A DNA stretch of 64,000 bases from a virus. Below the pieces are notes generated by a model. That model saw only the letters and a list, made by a program, of their open reading frames with translations, was not told the origin of the DNA and searched no databases. The translations under genes and the position numbers were made by a program. This document shows, in pieces, positions 37,634 through 45,281 of this stretch (position 1 is the first letter of the stretch; the number at the start of each line of letters is the position of its first letter). The stretch is from the UHGV virus genome UHGV-0038498. One strand, written 5' to 3'.

Positions 37634-37849
37634 ATGTTTAAGAAATTAATTCAGAAATTATTAGGTACGGAAATGGTTGAAGTTACTTATCGTGTGACTG
37701 ACGTTTCTCCTCTCACAGAAGACCATTTAGAGCCATATATTATGACAATTAAAATGCTTAAATATGATGGCGGATTATCTATTGAAGACCGTTTACCGGG
37801 TTACGGTCATTGGGCTGATGTTGAAATTATAAGTATTAAAGATGTCTGA
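37634..37849 (+). CDS. hypothetical protein
   Basis: 71-aa ORF. Confidence 0.5.
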   Translation: MFKKLIQKLLGTEMVEVTYRVTDVSPLTEDHLEPYIMTIKMLKYDGGLSIEDRLPGYGHWADVEIISIKDV

Positions 37850-38300
37850 ATTAGAGATTAGAAGCAATTTTAAATGGCCATCATGTGCATTAAGTAATTT
37901 CGCCCAATGGCCTTTCGTTATGGATGGCATTCAATTTGGAGGTCTCGAAGGATTCCTCCAAGGGTGTAAGGTGAAAAATGTTGAACAGCAAAGACGTATA
38001 TTTGGGTTATCCGGGCTTGCCGCCCAACAAGCTGGAAGGTCTTATGCTAGAGCTCAGGACCGTGGGACGTTGTTCTGGCTTGGAGTTCCGTTTTCAAGAT
38101 ACTCTCCGGCGTGGAAAGAATTATACACAAATGCATATTTTGAAGCAGCGTTCCAAAACAAAGGCTTTCGCGATGCATTACAAGCCTCGAAAGGAAAAGT
38201 TTTGAAGCACAGCATGGCTAGTGGTCTAACAAAAGATGATACAATACTAACCGAAGCTGAATTTATTGATGTGTTAAACCTATTAAGAGACTCTCTATGA
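37842..38300 (+). CDS. NADAR/YbiA-like protein (candidate ADP-ribose-processing hydrolase)
   Basis: 152-aa ORF; LSNFAQWPFVMDGIQFGGLEGFLQGCKV resembles the YbiA/NADAR core (FSNFAAWP...DG...EHYFQAQKF) as recalled. Confidence 0.5.
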   Translation: MSELEIRSNFKWPSCALSNFAQWPFVMDGIQFGGLEGFLQGCKVKNVEQQRRIFGLSGLAAQQAGRSYARAQDRGTLFWLGVPFSRYSPAWKELYTNAYFEAAFQNKGFRDALQASKGKVLKHSMASGLTKDDTILTEAEFIDVLNLLRDSL

Positions 38301-39160
38301 AGCCTACTATTTTAACTGATATTGATGGAGTATGTTTAAGCTGGCAATCAGGTCTTCCTTATTTTGCTCAGAAATATAATCTTCCGTTAGAACATATTTT
38401 AAAAATGATCCAAGATGAGAAATTTATTTCTCCAGGTAAACTCTTTAATTGTGATGAAGAACTCGGTGTCAAGCTAATTGAAAAATACAATCGATCAGAT
38501 TTTATTCGTTACTTGTCTCCATATAAAGATGCCCTGTGTGTAATTAACAAATTAAAAGAAGATTATAATTTTGTAGCTGTTACAGCATTGGGTGATTCTA
38601 TTGACGCTCTGCTGAATCGTCAATTTAATTTGAATGCTCTTTTTCCTGGTGCCTTCTCAGAAGTAATGATGTGTGGTCATGATTCTTCAAAAGAAGAGTT
38701 ATTCAAAAAGGCAAAAGAGAAATATAACGTAATTTGTTATATTGACGATCTTGCTCACCACTGCGATCATGCGAGTGAAATATTAAATGTTCCGGTTTAT
38801 TGGATGGCTCGAGGAGAGCGTGACAATATTCCAAAAACTGCGCAGCGAGTTTATACATGGAATGATGTAGAAAATAAGCTTTTTTCACCGAAGGAAAATA
38901 AAGAAAGTTTTGATAGTGAAAAAGCTATAAAAGATGTAATTGAGAAGATGGTTAAAAACGATTCTTTTCGTTGGAACACTACCTGGAGAACTCCTGGATT
39001 TAATCCGTATAATCCATATTATACACATCCATATAATCCATATTATACACACCCGTATCATATGAATCCATTCCATACGTGGAGTTATACTAAGCCTGGT
39101 GATGCAGGGTATTTTAATAGATTTACTAGTGGTGATAATATTTTCCAAGGAGCATTCTAA
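38297..39160 (+). CDS. HAD-superfamily hydrolase-like protein (possible nucleotidase) with P/Y-rich repeat tail
   Basis: 287-aa ORF beginning MKPTILTDIDGVCLSW (HAD motif I DxDGV); C-terminal PYNPYYTH tandem repeats. Confidence 0.5.
   Translation: MKPTILTDIDGVCLSWQSGLPYFAQKYNLPLEHILKMIQDEKFISPGKLFNCDEELGVKLIEKYNRSDFIRYLSPYKDALCVINKLKEDYNFVAVTALGDSIDALLNRQFNLNALFPGAFSEVMMCGHDSSKEELFKKAKEKYNVICYIDDLAHHCDHASEILNVPVYWMARGERDNIPKTAQRVYTWNDVENKLFSPKENKESFDSEKAIKDVIEKMVKNDSFRWNTTWRTPGFNPYNPYYTHPYNPYYTHPYHMNPFHTWSYTKPGDAGYFNRFTSGDNIFQGAF
39005..39076 (+). repeat. 24-bp tandem repeat (2 copies plus a degenerate third) inside the HAD-like ORF
   Basis: CCGTATAATCCATATTATACACAT / CCATATAATCCATATTATACACAC / CCGTATCATATGAATCCATTCCAT, encoding PYNPYYTH repeats. 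Confidence 0.7.
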
Positions 39161-39429: not shown

Positions 39430-40889
39430 TTCTTAAAATTCTGAATGAAATAGCATCTATTGGATCAACTAAGCAGAAGCAAGCAATTCTTGAAAAGAAT
39501 AAAGATAATGAATTGCTTAAACGAGTATATCGTCTGACTTATTCTCGTGGGTTACAGTATTATATCAAGAAATGGCCTAAGCCTGGTATTGCTACCCAGA
39601 GTTTTGGAATGCTGACTATTACCGATATGCTTGACTTCATTGAATTCACGTTAGCTACTCGGAAATTGACCGGAAATGCTGCAATTGAGGAATTGACTGG
39701 ATATATCACCGATGGTAAAAAGGATGATGTTGAAGTTTTGCGTCGAGTGATGATGCGAGACCTTGAATGCGGTGCTTCAGTATCTATTGCAAACAAAGTT
39801 TGGCCAGGTTTAATTCCCGAACAACCTCAAATGCTGGCAAGTTCTTATGATGAAAAAGGCATCAGTAAGAATATCAAATTTCCAGCTTTTGCACAGTTAA
39901 AAGCAGATGGAGCTCGGTGTTTTGCTGAAGTCCGAGGTGATGAATTAGATGATGTTCGTCTTTTATCACGAGCTGGTAATGAATATCTAGGATTAGATCT
40001 TCTTAAGGAAGAGTTAATCAAAATGACTGCTGAAGCCCGCCAGATTCATCCAGAAGGTGTGTTAATTGATGGCGAATTGGTATACCACGAGCAAGTTAAA
40101 AAGGAACCAGAAGGCCTAGATTTTCTTTTTGATGCTTATCCTGAAATTAGTAAAGCTAAAGAATTCGCCGAAGTAGCGGAATCTCGTACTGCTTCTAATG
40201 GAATCGCCAATAAATCCTTAAAAGGAACCATTTCCGAAAAAGAAGCTCAATGCATGAAGTTTCAGGTCTGGGATTATGTCCCGTTGGTAGAAATATACGG
40301 TCTTCCGGCGTTTCGTTTAAAATATGATGTACGTTTTTCTAAACTAGAACAAATGACATCAGGATATGATAAAGTAATTTTAATTGAAAACCAGGTAGTA
40401 AATAACCTAGATGAAGCTAAGGTAATTTATAAAAAGTATATTGACCAAGGTCTTGAAGGTATTATTCTCAAAAATATCGATGGATTATGGGAAAATGCTC
40501 GTTCAAAAAATCTCTATAAATTTAAAGAAGTAATTGATGTTGATTTAAAAATTGTAGGAATTTATCCTCACCGTAAAGACCCTACTAAAGCAGGTGGATT
40601 TATTCTTGAATCAGAGTGTGGAAAAATTAAAGTAAATGCTGGTTCAGGCTTAAAAGATAAAGCCGGTGTAAAATCACATGAACTTGACCGTACTCGCATT
40701 ATGGAAAACCAAAATTATTATATTGGAAAAATTCTAGAGTGCGAATGCAACGGTTGGCTAAAATCTGATGGCCGCACTGATTACGTTAAATTATTTCTTC
40801 CGATTGCGATTCGTTTACGTGAAGATAAAACTAAAGCTAATACATTCGAGGATGTATTTGGTGATTTTCATGAGGTAACTGGTCTATGA
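39426..40889 (+). CDS. 30: ATP-dependent DNA ligase gp30
   Basis: 487-aa ORF MILKILNEIASIGSTKQKQAILEKNKDNELLKRVYRL..., adenylation motif KADGARC; matches T4 gp30. Confidence 0.93.
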   Translation: MILKILNEIASIGSTKQKQAILEKNKDNELLKRVYRLTYSRGLQYYIKKWPKPGIATQSFGMLTITDMLDFIEFTLATRKLTGNAAIEELTGYITDGKKDDVEVLRRVMMRDLECGASVSIANKVWPGLIPEQPQMLASSYDEKGISKNIKFPAFAQLKADGARCFAEVRGDELDDVRLLSRAGNEYLGLDLLKEELIKMTAEARQIHPEGVLIDGELVYHEQVKKEPEGLDFLFDAYPEISKAKEFAEVAESRTASNGIANKSLKGTISEKEAQCMKFQVWDYVPLVEIYGLPAFRLKYDVRFSKLEQMTSGYDKVILIENQVVNNLDEAKVIYKKYIDQGLEGIILKNIDGLWENARSKNLYKFKEVIDVDLKIVGIYPHRKDPTKAGGFILESECGKIKVNAGSGLKDKAGVKSHELDRTRIMENQNYYIGKILECECNGWLKSDGRTDYVKLFLPIAIRLREDKTKANTFEDVFGDFHEVTGL

Positions 40890-41074
40890 AAGCTTACTTA
40901 GAAACAATTGTCGTTGCTCAAAAAGAAGGTGAAGATGTTTCTACTTCTGTATCACAAATTATGATTGAATTTATAGATGCATATGCTTATAATAAATTCA
41001 CAGAAACATTTGATGCCTATGAAAAAGGTCCAAAGTTTGAAATATATCGTACTCTCTTACCAATAGATTATTAA
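40886..41074 (+). CDS. hypothetical protein
   Basis: 62-aa ORF overlapping the ligase stop. Confidence 0.45.
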   Translation: MKAYLETIVVAQKEGEDVSTSVSQIMIEFIDAYAYNKFTETFDAYEKGPKFEIYRTLLPIDY

Positions 41075-41123: not shown

Positions 41124-43220
41124 ATGATGGAACTCATTACAGAATTATTTGACGAAGATACTACTCTTCCGATTACAAACTTAAATCCAAAGAAGAAAAT
41201 ACCGCAAATTTTTTCAGTTCATGTTGATGACGCAATTGAACAACCAGGATTTCGTTTATGTACCTATACATCTGGAGGTGATACTAATCGCGATTTAAAG
41301 ATGGGCGATAAAATGATGCATATTGTTCCTTTTACATTAACTGCTAAAGGTTCAATTGCTAAATTAAAAGGTCTCGGTCCAAGCCCAATTAATTATATCA
41401 ATTCAGTTTTTACTGTTGCGATGCAGACGATGCGTCAGTATAAAATTGATGCATGTATGCTCCGTATTCTTAAGTCTAAAACTGCTGGTCAAGCTCGTCA
41501 AATTCAACTTATTGCTGATAGACTTATCCGTAGTCGCTCAGGTGGCAGATACGTCCTTCTTAAGGAACTCTGGGATTACGATAAAAAGTATGCATATATT
41601 CTTATACATCGCAAAAATGTATCATTAGAAGACATTCCAGGAGTTCCTGAAATTAGTACCGAGCTCTTTACTAAAGTTGAATCGAAGGTCGGTGATGTTT
41701 ATATCAATAAAGATACTGGAGCTCAAGTAACTAAAAATGAGGCAATTGCAGCATCTATTGCGCAAGAAAACGATAAACGTTCTGACCAAGCTGTAATCGT
41801 TAAAGTTAAAATTTCCCGTAGAGCAATTGCACAAAGTCAGTCATTGGAATCTTCTAGATTTGAAAGTGAATTATTCCAGAAGTATGAATCTACTGCAGCT
41901 AATTTCAATAAACCTGCTACCGCTCCTTTAATTCCCGAAGCGGAAGAAATGAAACTTGGAATTAATTCACTAGCTTCTAAAACTAAGGCAGCAAAAATCA
42001 TTGCCGAAGGAACTGCAGATGAACTTCACTATGATTATAAATTCTTTTCAAAAAGTGAGGTTAATGAAGTTTCTGAAAAAATTAAAGATGTAATTCTTAA
42101 TGCGATTAAAAATGAACCAACTACTTCAATAAAATGTTTAGAGAAATACGCAGCAGCTATTAATAAATTCTTTGAAGAATACAAAGATACTTGGCTTGAT
42201 AAACATAATAAAACCCGTAAAGGACAGCCAGATGAAGTTTGGGAAGAAATAACTAAAAATTCCTGGAACGCAGCAAAAACTAAATTCCTCAAACGAATGA
42301 TTTATAGCTTTTCTGGAATTGGTGCAGGTCCAATGATTGATATTACTATTGCCCGTGATGGTTCGAAATATACTCCATCACAAAAGCGCGGCATTAGAGA
42401 GTATTGTGGTTCAGGATATACTGACATCAATAATCTTCTTTTAGGACGCTACAATCCAGAACGATATGATGTAATGAGTGAAAAAGAAATTGAATCTGCT
42501 ATAAATAACTTAGATTCAGCTTTTGAAAATGGTGACCGTATACCGGAAGGCATTACAGTTTATCGTGCTCAAAGTATGACTGCTCCTATATACGAAGCAT
42601 TAGTTAAAAATAAAGTGTTCTATTTCAGAAATTTTGTATCTACTTCTTTAACTCCTATCATTTTTGGACGTTTTGGAATTACACATGCTGGTATTGGTCT
42701 TTTAGAACCAGAAGCTCGTAATGAATTAACAGTTGATAAAAATGAAGAAGGAATAACTATTAATCCAAACGAAATAAGAGCGTATAAAGAAAATCCTGAA
42801 TACGTTAAAGTTCAAATAGGATGGGCAATTGATGGAGCTCATAAAGTTAATGTTGTATATCCAGGAAGTCTCGGAATAGCAACCGAAGCTGAAGTTATTC
42901 TACCACGCGGATTGATGGTCAAAGTTAATAAAATAACTGATGCTTCTAATAATGACGGAACAACATCTAATAATACAAAACTCATTCAAGCTGAAGTTAT
43001 GACTACGGAAGAACTCACCGAATCAGTAATTTATGACGGTGACCGTCTAATGGAAACCGGCGAAGTAGTTGCAATGACAGGTGATATTGAAATAGAAGAC
43101 AGAGTTGACTTTGCATCATTTGTTTCATCAAATGTTAAACAAAAAGTAGAATCATCTCTTGGAATTATTGCGTCTTGCATAGATATTACAAACATGCCTT
43201 ACAAGTTCGTTCAAGGATAA
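41124..43220 (+). CDS. alt: ADP-ribosyltransferase Alt (head-packaged)
   Basis: 698-aa ORF; N-terminus MELITELFD..., PGFRLCTYTSGGDTN, R-S-E candidates TVYRAQ / FVSTSL / EAEVILPRG; late promoter upstream. Confidence 0.85.
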   Translation: MMELITELFDEDTTLPITNLNPKKKIPQIFSVHVDDAIEQPGFRLCTYTSGGDTNRDLKMGDKMMHIVPFTLTAKGSIAKLKGLGPSPINYINSVFTVAMQTMRQYKIDACMLRILKSKTAGQARQIQLIADRLIRSRSGGRYVLLKELWDYDKKYAYILIHRKNVSLEDIPGVPEISTELFTKVESKVGDVYINKDTGAQVTKNEAIAASIAQENDKRSDQAVIVKVKISRRAIAQSQSLESSRFESELFQKYESTAANFNKPATAPLIPEAEEMKLGINSLASKTKAAKIIAEGTADELHYDYKFFSKSEVNEVSEKIKDVILNAIKNEPTTSIKCLEKYAAAINKFFEEYKDTWLDKHNKTRKGQPDEVWEEITKNSWNAAKTKFLKRMIYSFSGIGAGPMIDITIARDGSKYTPSQKRGIREYCGSGYTDINNLLLGRYNPERYDVMSEKEIESAINNLDSAFENGDRIPEGITVYRAQSMTAPIYEALVKNKVFYFRNFVSTSLTPIIFGRFGITHAGIGLLEPEARNELTVDKNEEGITINPNEIRAYKENPEYVKVQIGWAIDGAHKVNVVYPGSLGIATEAEVILPRGLMVKVNKITDASNNDGTTSNNTKLIQAEVMTTEELTESVIYDGDRLMETGEVVAMTGDIEIEDRVDFASFVSSNVKQKVESSLGIIASCIDITNMPYKFVQG

Positions 43221-43223
43221 ATC

Positions 43224-45281
43224 ATGGAACTTATTACAGAATTATTTGACGGCGCTTCGGCGCCGGTTGTTAACTTAAATCCTAAGCATAAAATACCTCA
43301 AATTTTTGCTATTCAAGCCGGCGAAGAAAGTGTGCTTCCTGGATTTAGATTTTGTACATACACCTCTGGCGGTGATACAAATAAAAACGTTAAGCCAGGC
43401 GATAAAATGATGCATATCGTAATGATAGGTGTTAATGAGAAACTATCATTAGTTAAACTTAAAAACTTGGGTGGAAATCCAATTGGTGTCATTAATGCCG
43501 TTTTTGATACTGCTCTTCAAACAATGAAACAGTATAAAATTGACGCATGCTTATTCCGCGTACTAAAAAGTAAAACAAATGGCGCAGCTCGTCAAATGCA
43601 AGTTATTGCTGACCGTTTAGTACGTACTAAAGGAGCAGGTCGATATGTTCTTTTAAAGGAAATCTGGGATTATGATAAAAAGTATGCATATATTATGGTT
43701 TACCGTAAAAATGCCAATTTAGAAGACATTCCAGGTGTACCTCCTATTTCAACTGAGTTATTCACAAAAGTTGAATCAAAGGTTGGTGATGTGTATGTAG
43801 ATGTTAAAACAGGTAATGCTGTTCCTAAAGCTGTTGCTGTTGCTGCTTCTATTGCCTTAGAAAATGATAAGCGCACGGATCAAGCTGTTATTCAGAAAAC
43901 TAAAATTAGTCGTCGATTAGCAGCGCAAGCTCAATATTCTACTGTCGATGCTTCACTACAGAGTGATAGCTTCGCTGCCAAGAAATATCAAGAGTTTGAA
44001 TCTAAAGTTCCGGTACATAAAGCAGAAGGACCAATGAACTCTGGCGTTATTCAGATTGGTTCAAACTTCGGCAAAGGAGCTATCGGTGGTATGAGAAGTG
44101 CTTCTCGTTTTAAATCTAACGATTATGAACTAGAAAGCTTCCGAAATCATATTGCATTGGCCCATGCACGTTTACGTGATCCATCTATCAAGCTGCAGAG
44201 CGATATAACATATCAAGGTTCTCAAGAATATTTAAAGAATAAAGAATTTTTTGATTATAAAACCGATAAAATTTTGAGCGATCTCGCTGACATTAATATT
44301 TCTAATAGCTTTGATGTTATTAAGAAAATTATCAATGATTTAGTTAAAGGTTCTAAAGCTACGCCAGACGAAAAGGTAGCTATTATTCAATTTGTCATGA
44401 ATGGCATTTATAAATTGATTAATGAATCTGCTGCCCAGGCGTATGAATACGCAAGCACCGAAGTAACTCCAAAAGGACTGACTCAGGCTGAGTCTGATGT
44501 AATTGAAGATTATTGTGCAGATTCATATGTTGAAATGAACTCGTTCCTCTTGGGTAAACCAGATTCTACCCGTGAAGAATACATGGAACGAGCTATTAAA
44601 CACATCGAGACAATGGATTCTGCCTTTGCCAAAGGTTCAGTTCTTCCTCCAGGAACTACGCTTTATCGTGGACAAGAAGTTACTTTTAAAACTTTACGCC
44701 ATAATATTGAAAATAAAATGTTCTATTTCAAGAACTTCGTATCAACATCGCTTAAACCAAATATCTTCGGTGAGCATGGTAAAAACTATATGGCTCTAGA
44801 TGATTCCGGCGCAGTATTTTCTGGTGAAGGAGAAGGTTCTGTTGATGCTGAAGATTTAATGCATATGGGTAGTCATTCTGCTTATGCGAATGAAGATGCT
44901 GAAACTAGCGTAGGTATGGTAATTAAAGGGGCTGAGCGAATCAAAGTTATCGTTCCAGGTCATTTATCAGGATTTCCATCAGAAGCTGAAGTTATTCTAC
45001 CGCGTGGAATTTTGTTGAAGATTAATAAAGTAAGCACGTACATGATGAAAGAAACTGCTTATAACAAGTATCTAATCGAAGGCACAATCGTTCCTCCTTC
45101 TGAACAATTAGAAGAATCGGTATATGATGGCGATCATCTAATGGAAACTGGTGAAGTTCGTCCAATGGCTGGGTTTAATCAATTCCTTGTAGAAGAATCA
45201 AAAGAAGAGGAAAACGAAGTTTCTCAAATCTTGGCTTCTTTGGTTAACATCAACGGAATGTCTAAAAAGTTCAAGATGTAG
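43224..45281 (+). CDS. second Alt-family ADP-ribosyltransferase paralogue
   Basis: 685-aa ORF 3 nt downstream of alt; N-terminal ~230 aa collinear with alt, catalytic motifs TLYRGQ / FVSTSL / EAEVILPRG retained, central region divergent. Confidence 0.8.
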   Translation: MELITELFDGASAPVVNLNPKHKIPQIFAIQAGEESVLPGFRFCTYTSGGDTNKNVKPGDKMMHIVMIGVNEKLSLVKLKNLGGNPIGVINAVFDTALQTMKQYKIDACLFRVLKSKTNGAARQMQVIADRLVRTKGAGRYVLLKEIWDYDKKYAYIMVYRKNANLEDIPGVPPISTELFTKVESKVGDVYVDVKTGNAVPKAVAVAASIALENDKRTDQAVIQKTKISRRLAAQAQYSTVDASLQSDSFAAKKYQEFESKVPVHKAEGPMNSGVIQIGSNFGKGAIGGMRSASRFKSNDYELESFRNHIALAHARLRDPSIKLQSDITYQGSQEYLKNKEFFDYKTDKILSDLADINISNSFDVIKKIINDLVKGSKATPDEKVAIIQFVMNGIYKLINESAAQAYEYASTEVTPKGLTQAESDVIEDYCADSYVEMNSFLLGKPDSTREEYMERAIKHIETMDSAFAKGSVLPPGTTLYRGQEVTFKTLRHNIENKMFYFKNFVSTSLKPNIFGEHGKNYMALDDSGAVFSGEGEGSVDAEDLMHMGSHSAYANEDAETSVGMVIKGAERIKVIVPGHLSGFPSEAEVILPRGILLKINKVSTYMMKETAYNKYLIEGTIVPPSEQLEESVYDGDHLMETGEVRPMAGFNQFLVEESKEEENEVSQILASLVNINGMSKKFKM

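Follow-up and report, generated by a model that had tools for sequence, protein, structure and literature searches.

An intact adfN (gene 30.3) allele in a T4-like phage genome and its predicted role against the DarTG1 defence

One question raised by the virus genome UHGV-0038498 is what is encoded by the small open reading frame (ORF) situated between genes 30.4 and 30.2. In an earlier note, made from the letters of this DNA, the ORF was taken for a NADAR/YbiA-like ADP-ribose hydrolase, which would either oppose DNA ADP-ribosylation by DarT-type toxins of the host or regulate the phage's own modifications. The window discussed below is the whole stretch of DNA that was analysed (64,000 nucleotides), and the genes and residues located in it lie on the + strand. 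The analysis indicates that the ORF is very probably an intact T-even allele of adfN, specifying a small N-glycosidase that consists of a single NADAR-fold domain and counters DarTG1. The first of the two suggestions therefore coincides with the published function of the near-identical T4 gp30.3 (AdfN); the function of the gene is already known from the literature, and no new biology is added to it here. For the window allele the assignment is based upon its near-identity to T4, the fold, the conservation of Glu36, Lys43, and His123, and the C-terminal helix, while the activity data are those of the T4/T2 protein.

In the raw sequence, as in the ORF list, the reading frame runs from an ATG at 37842 to a TGA at 38298-38300 (37842..38300, +; 152 amino acids plus stop), exactly as it had been described before, with LSNFAQWPFVMDGIQFGGLEGFLQGCKV at residues 17-44 and ELYTNAYFEAAFQNKGFRDALQ at residues 93-114. 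It is read here as adfN (T4 gene 30.3), the coding sequence of a predicted NADAR-fold DNA ADP-ribosylglycohydrolase. Alignment with T4 gp30.3, which is of equal length, is gap-free and reveals 149 of 152 residues to be identical (98%). The three substitutions (K11R, F104I, and M125I in T4) fall at variable columns of the family alignment, where Met125 is the family-majority residue, and Escherichia phage A6-6 possesses a copy that is 100% identical to the window protein (tblastn). The Pfam family PF08010 (Phage_30_3) is matched over profile positions 1-138 of 138 with E=1.3e-69 and 232.8 bits against a cut-off of 36, which places the match far beyond chance. All of the defining features tested here were found, and the ORF is assigned to the gp30.3/AdfN family.

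Homologues were located by tblastn in 1511 phage records, mostly those of T4-like phages of enterobacteria, Klebsiella, Aeromonas, Acinetobacter, and Vibrio. PHROG 652, which matches the window protein, carries the label "unknown function"; its profile has 296 positions, of which 126-272 are matched, and the family members P0030 and P0031 (201 amino acids) possess an N-terminal extension of ~55 residues or more ahead of the NADAR domain. Neither a search of NCBIfam nor a single-sequence phmmer search of the PDB returned a match to the window protein. In most records, hundreds of those of T4-like phages among them, the gene is labelled "hypothetical protein," for which the proper annotation is adfN, a characterised anti-defence enzyme.

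The genome in the window is T4-like (Tequatrovirus). For the 2 kb surrounding adfN there are matches in 695 phage records, the identity reaching 96.7% in Shigella phage SH-2. The genes run in the order gp31, rIII, 30.9 ... 30.3, 30.2, 30.1, DNA ligase, as they do in T4 (NC_000866), which bears out the earlier placement of the ORF in the early 30.x cluster. The stop of 30.4 and the start of adfN share an overlap of 8 nt (ATGTCTGA; 37842..37849, +), which is also found in T4 and probably reflects co-transcription and translational coupling; the stop of adfN in turn overlaps the ATG of 30.2 (ATGA). No terminator-like site was seen on the + strand from 36410 to the ligase gene, and a scan for promoters and terminators gave 26 sites versus 21.9 ± 6.3 in shuffled sequences, that is, no enrichment. 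The early genes 30.4, 30.2, 30.1, and ligase, which are co-directional and overlapping, are presumably co-transcribed with adfN.

Directly upstream of adfN there is a mosaic junction. Gene 30.4 of the window (37634..37849, +; 71 amino acids; PHROG 2042) is an RB69-type allele, the product of which is 75% identical to RB69 gp30.4 and 50% identical to T4 gp30.4, and the 30.5 gene of T4 is absent. DNA homology to T4 breaks over 37635..37802 and resumes ~40 nt before the adfN start, with T4's 30.5 and most of its 30.4 being replaced in the window by the single 71-residue ORF. A further ORF, 30.3′ (37978..38205, +), is situated within adfN in another frame; the T4 annotation lists it as a CDS, and a separate PHROG exists for it. 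Comparison of the window with T4 reveals 10 amino-acid changes in its 75 residues versus one in the overlapping adfN frame, which implies that selection acts on adfN and that 30.3′ is probably not a real gene.

A second question is how firmly the protein can be tied to the NADAR superfamily. The YbiA motif given in the earlier note is accurate, since the E. coli K-12 protein reads FSNFAAWPIKVDGKTWPTSEHYFQAQKF. In a pairwise BLASTP the window protein and YbiA align over the catalytic motif with E=9e-6; hhalign comparison of the family profile with YbiA gives a probability of 93.9% (E=1.5e-7, 91 columns); and a PDB search with the family profile returned YbiA (2B3W) as the sole match at E<=1 (E=0.0037). 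At the Pfam level the expectation held only in part: the link to YbiA is significant, but PF08719 (NADAR) did not match the window protein directly at E<=1, because gp30.3 sits in a Pfam family of its own, PF08010. A distant bridging member (P0082) is hit by PF08010 and also by PF08719, in the second case at 1.5e-7 with 32.3 bits, which is below the cut-off of 35.1, and YbiA conversely shows a weak match to PF08010. The link between the window protein and NADARs is remote at the level of sequence and becomes clear only at that of structure; the alpha+beta fold of NADARs is present, and despite missing the PF08719 threshold the protein belongs structurally to the superfamily.

The family alignment contained 62 gp30.3-family members with identities down to 35%, and the S18-N19-F20 motif, like Glu36, Lys43, and His123, is invariant in it. 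The catalytic glutamate, Glu36 (codon GAA, 37947..37949, +; 62/62), corresponds to E48 of YbiA, E43 of the Phytophthora NADAR, and E88 of E. coli C7 DarG1. Lys43 (codon AAG, 37968..37970, +; 62/62), the phosphate/adenine-coordinating lysine, corresponds to YbiA K55, Phytophthora K50, and C7 K95, the role of the latter two having been described (PMC11543638); the Glu/Lys pair seven residues apart that is seen in the Phytophthora (E43/K50) and C7 (E88/K95) proteins is thus present as E36/K43. Arg66 aligns with R79 of both YbiA and the Phytophthora enzyme. The last-strand catalytic position is occupied by His123 (codon CAC, 38208..38210, +; 62/62), which falls on E125 of YbiA and of the Phytophthora protein in a register that extends one residue beyond the end of the hhalign match to YbiA. 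Phage NADARs have His at this position, a residue that marks the gp30.3 subfamily, YbiA has Glu125, and DarG1 has Asp (PMC11125620, PMC11543638). Both points on which the earlier note had made its assignment depend, a significant profile hit to YbiA and conserved catalytic residues in a proper alignment, consequently came out in its favour. The C-terminal helix (residues 138-152, EAEFIDVLNLLRDSL; 38253..38297, +) is likewise intact, with residues 138-151 helical in the structure model. With all of the known catalytic and structural requirements in place, the window allele is complete.

The function of the T4 protein has been established by Johannesman, Awasthi, Carlson, and LeRoux (Nat Commun 2025), who renamed T4 30.3 adfN, for anti-DarT factor NADAR (PMC11825919). 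Recombination between T2/T4 and RB69 mapped T-even phages' resistance to DarTG1 to 30.3, and AdfN, which has a NADAR fold, proved necessary and sufficient for it (PMC11825919). T4 and T2 deleted for adfN no longer form plaques on DarTG1 hosts, ectopic adfN-T4 restores RB69 on DarTG1, E36A and K43A weaken AdfN-T4, and the purified protein strips ADP-ribose from DarT1-modified DNA in vitro (PMC11825919). RB69 is sensitive to DarTG1 because the insertion of a T at nt 411 of its gene cuts off the last 15 residues, and C-terminal truncation of AdfN lowers activity (PMC11825919). This insertion, with a stop after TILT, was recovered here in RB69 30.3; the window and T4 alleles are without it. NADARs are guanine-ADPr hydrolases (Schuller et al. 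2023; PMC11543638), and in vitro the T4 enzyme hydrolysed guanine-ADPr and not thymine-ADPr (2024 Toxins paper; PMC11125620). Transposon sequencing in the 2025 HIDEN-SEQ preprint found 30.3/adfN to be dispensable on K-12 and lost on DarTG1, where its Data S6 give a log2FC of -7.25 with an adjusted p = 0 (10.1101/2025.11.20.689424).

By orthology, we infer that the window allele would have the same activity as T4 AdfN, including the requirement for it during growth on DarTG1 hosts. No functional difference from T4 AdfN is expected to arise from the three substitutions or from the RB69-type upstream cassette; AdfN-T4 is functional in RB69, which has the RB69-type 30.4 and no 30.5. Whether a T-even phage can grow on DarTG1-carrying E. 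coli is predicted by its adfN being intact, as in the window, or frameshifted, as it is in RB69, which is of use in phage therapy and host-range prediction.

The mechanism, established for T4 and extended to the window allele on account of the 98% identity, would be as follows. The DarT1 toxin of host DarTG1 would ADP-ribosylate guanines in phage DNA, whereupon replication is blocked; AdfN would cut the guanine-ADP-ribose bond, releasing ADP-ribose and restoring the template, and would in this sense be a phage-carried "orphan antitoxin." Because AdfN acts on guanine adducts and not on those of thymine, the thymine-specific DarTG2 is not countered by the T4 protein; in T4 the latter is handled by the macrodomain protein Tk.4/AdfM. 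The T4 enzyme gave no rescue from DarT1 in uninfected cells (PMC11125620) and AdfN-T4 rescues T5 and Bas25 only weakly, from which it follows that a simple "enzyme removes adduct" scheme is not the whole mechanism. The construct described in Methods 4.2 of PMC11125620 is "gp30.3; residues: 1-208," versus the 152 amino acids of T4 gp30.3. The figure of 208 is either a misprint or a length that includes a tag, or else it belongs to a different homologue, and the discrepancy bears on how far the in vivo result of that paper can be relied upon for T4 AdfN.

Some insight into this dependence on the T-even context may be offered by residue 62. Gln62 of the window protein (codon CAA, 38025..38027, +) occupies the position of DarG1 K115 and Phytophthora K75, in a register fixed three residues before the invariant Gly65 and with the equivalence of K115 and K75 taken from PMC11543638. 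K115 of C7 DarG1 is dispensable for catalysis but essential for in vivo rescue from DarT1, and this type of lysine is conserved in DarT1-associated NADARs (PMC11543638). Gln62 is shared by the window, T4, and RB69 alleles. All eight T-even-clade sequences (at least 57% identity) have Q, H, or M at the position, whereas Lys is found in 52 of the 54 more distant members, a pattern which is a correlation confounded by phylogeny; the mean net charge of the loop formed by residues 55-76 is +2.6 in the T-even clade versus +6.4 in the rest of the family. YbiA has Ala at the equivalent position and likewise gives no in vivo rescue (PMC11125620). The DarG1-type structure 8BAT was not retrieved in a search with the gp30.3-family profile, and tblastn with YbiA reached neither AdfN-Bas32 and AdfN-Bas60 nor DarG1. 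Residue 62 is not mentioned in the AdfN paper (PMC11825919), and the observation of Gln/His/Met62 in T-even phages appears to be unpublished.

A tentative and, on balance, doubtful explanation is that the T-even AdfN clade specifically lost the K115-equivalent lysine together with most of the surrounding basic loop and so became active only in T-even infection. Given that K115 is dispensable for catalysis and essential in vivo, loss of the lysine could explain why AdfN-T4 fails as a stand-alone antitoxin and in T5 and Bas25. If this were so, T-even AdfN would need a T-even-specific factor to reach its DNA substrate; since the T4 transposon screen revealed no other non-essential gene to be needed except 30.4, such a factor would probably have to be sought among the essential proteins of replication or recombination. 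Furthermore, uninfected cells would then be rescued from DarT1 by a Q62K substitution, by grafting in a loop rich in Lys, or by a homologue of the Lys62 type taken from a phage of Klebsiella, Acinetobacter, or Vibrio. The clade-specific loss of this lysine is the sole possibly new element of the analysis, a small testable lead which, if confirmed, would offer a simple structural way into the question of why AdfN-T4 is confined to its own phage context.

The exception just mentioned, gene 30.4, has a log2FC of -1.79 (adjusted p 0.014) on DarTG1 in Extended Data Table 6 and Data S6 of the HIDEN-SEQ preprint, 30.3 and 30.4 being the only two significant DarTG1 genes genome-wide (10.1101/2025.11.20.689424); 30.4 is not mentioned in the main text of that preprint. 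Relatives of the Met62 type have a 30.5-like ORF in place of 30.4. A polar or dosage effect on adfN is more likely than a helper function, because 30.4 overlaps the adfN start, is conserved to 50% in comparison with 98% for AdfN, and is replaced in these relatives.

On the other side of adfN lies gene 30.2 (38297..39160, +), annotated only as "hypothetical," the product of which is recognised from conserved motifs, AF2 modelling, and Foldseek as a phosphatase of the HAD fold that resembles 5′(3′)-deoxyribonucleotidases and ends in a disordered tail with repeats. Alignment shows the HAD motif residues D8, D10, K132, D150, and D151 to be invariant and T96 to be at least 90% conserved. The AF2 model has pLDDT >90 over residues 1-200, followed by the disordered tail, and the best size-normalised Foldseek matches are 5′(3′)-deoxyribonucleotidases (2JAO, 3BWV, and 2I7D). 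The C-terminal tail contains two copies of the repeat NPYNPYYTHPY, and its length varies among homologues. Gene 30.2 immediately follows 30.3 in an Acinetobacter phage, as it does in a metagenomic relative that is intermediate, and in Klebsiella Slopekvirus it comes a few genes after it; in Vibrio phage QD01 (PV785814, 3507..4461) a clear NT5C-family HAD 5′(3′)-deoxyribonucleotidase (PF06941, E=4.7e-12) comes after the 30.3 homologue, which it overlaps by 20 nt. The pairing of a NADAR with a succeeding HAD nucleotidase is one that recurs across distant T4-like phages. The role of a required T-even co-factor was considered for gp30.2 and rejected because T4 insertions are neutral on DarTG1 (71 sites, log2FC -0.12, p=0.61; HIDEN-SEQ); in addition, 30.2 shows no linkage to 30.3 outside the Straboviridae.

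Could the substrate be something other than DNA? Before experiments were available, it was put forward, on the basis of context, that phage NADARs act on soluble ADP-ribose-derived molecules, that is, immune signals or by-products of RNA repair. The poor performance of AdfN-T4 as an antitoxin outside T-even infection would fit such a role, as would the reduced charge of the T-even loop, which elsewhere in the family is basic and possibly DNA-binding. Against this stand the in vitro removal of ADPr from DNA by AdfN-T4 and the specific sensitivity to DarTG1 that T4 and T2 acquire when it is lost, which leaves a soluble substrate quite unlikely and the hydrolysis of guanine adducts in DNA the favoured reading.

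The statement that this phage also encodes ADP-ribosyltransferases is correct: two tandem full-length Alt-type genes (41124..43220 and 43224..45281, +; 698 and 685 amino acids; both PF03496) are located 2.8-7 kb downstream of adfN in the same orientation. Their products share 42% identity. The first gene is the orthologue of T4 alt, and the second stands in place of the T4 remnants alt.-1/alt.-2, described in the T4 annotation as an "old duplication"; as it is full-length where T4 has remnants, the phage keeps an intact second Alt paralogue. Between the ligase gene and alt lies alt.1 (40886..41074, +; 62 amino acids), which is hypothetical in T4 and matches PF24647 ("Phage blade protein") at E=1e-27. 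The presence of the Alt genes might suggest that AdfN regulates or erases the phage's own ADP-ribosylation, at the targets of Alt, ModA, and ModB, as the earlier note had also proposed. However, closeness to alt is ordinary T4 synteny, and no interaction with DarTG1 was seen for alt, modA, or modB. It is guanine-ADPr, as opposed to thymine-ADPr, that is hydrolysed by the NADARs tested so far, for which no protein substrate is known, and T4 adfN is non-essential without DarTG1, insertions having been obtained at 27 of its 28 TA sites. This second suggestion found no support and is highly improbable.

A metabolic role of the YbiA type, as an N-glycosidase acting on intermediates of the riboflavin pathway, might be considered in that, among the relatives with a solved structure, YbiA is the nearest in sequence; it is hardly credible for a protein with ~20% identity to YbiA, belonging to a family in which E125 is replaced by His123 in all members, and for which the direct experimental function is anti-DarTG1. 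That the allele is inactive or decaying, as is suggested by the RB69 frameshift and by the frequency of truncated or split 30.3 products in the databases (e.g., entries of 83-126 amino acids), has next to no likelihood for an ORF that is full length, keeps all invariant residues, differs from T4 at variable columns, and specifies a protein found identical in a second phage.

Setting the anti-DarTG1 enzyme beside known systems, the window protein shares with T4 AdfN E36, K43, the C-terminal helix, and its place between 30.4 and 30.2 upstream of DNA ligase, the differences being the three substitutions and the upstream cassette, which in the window is of the RB69 type (diverged 30.4, no 30.5). 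DarG1 (BC4488 subfamily; E. coli C7 and Geobacter lovleyi 8BAT; PMC11543638) performs the same chemistry on the same adduct, but is DarT1-adjacent, whereas window AdfN is a phage-carried orphan with no DarT beside it; the neighbours of adfN are 30.4 and the HAD-like 30.2, and the nearest ARTs are the Alt-type PF03496 genes ~3 kb downstream. DarG1 is also longer (219 versus 152 amino acids), has a last-strand Asp (C7 D171) where window AdfN has His123, and has a lysine (C7 K115) where the latter has Gln62; in uninfected cells AdfN-T4 cannot replace it. The members of the YbiA subfamily, YbiA (2B3W) and the Phytophthora NADAR (8BAU), show ~18-20% identity to the window protein and have Glu125 opposite His123, and YbiA, unlike the phage protein, is a housekeeping N-glycosidase encoded in a host operon. 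Owing to the His at the last-strand position, the lack of an adjacent DarT, and the lack of a K115-equivalent lysine, window AdfN is neither of the DarG1 nor of the YbiA type.

AdfN-Bas32 and AdfN-Bas60, from T5-like and rV5-like phages, are likewise orphan NADARs carried by phages, and they act against DarTG1 but not against DarTG2. They were acquired independently from other branches of the NADARs and, unlike AdfN-T4, neutralise DarT1 without phage infection. AdfM (T4 Tk.4) follows the same strategy, a phage mimic of an antitoxin enzyme that erases DNA ADP-ribosylation (HIDEN-SEQ preprint, 10.1101/2025.11.20.689424), but does so with an unrelated macrodomain fold, upon thymine-ADPr, and from a different locus.
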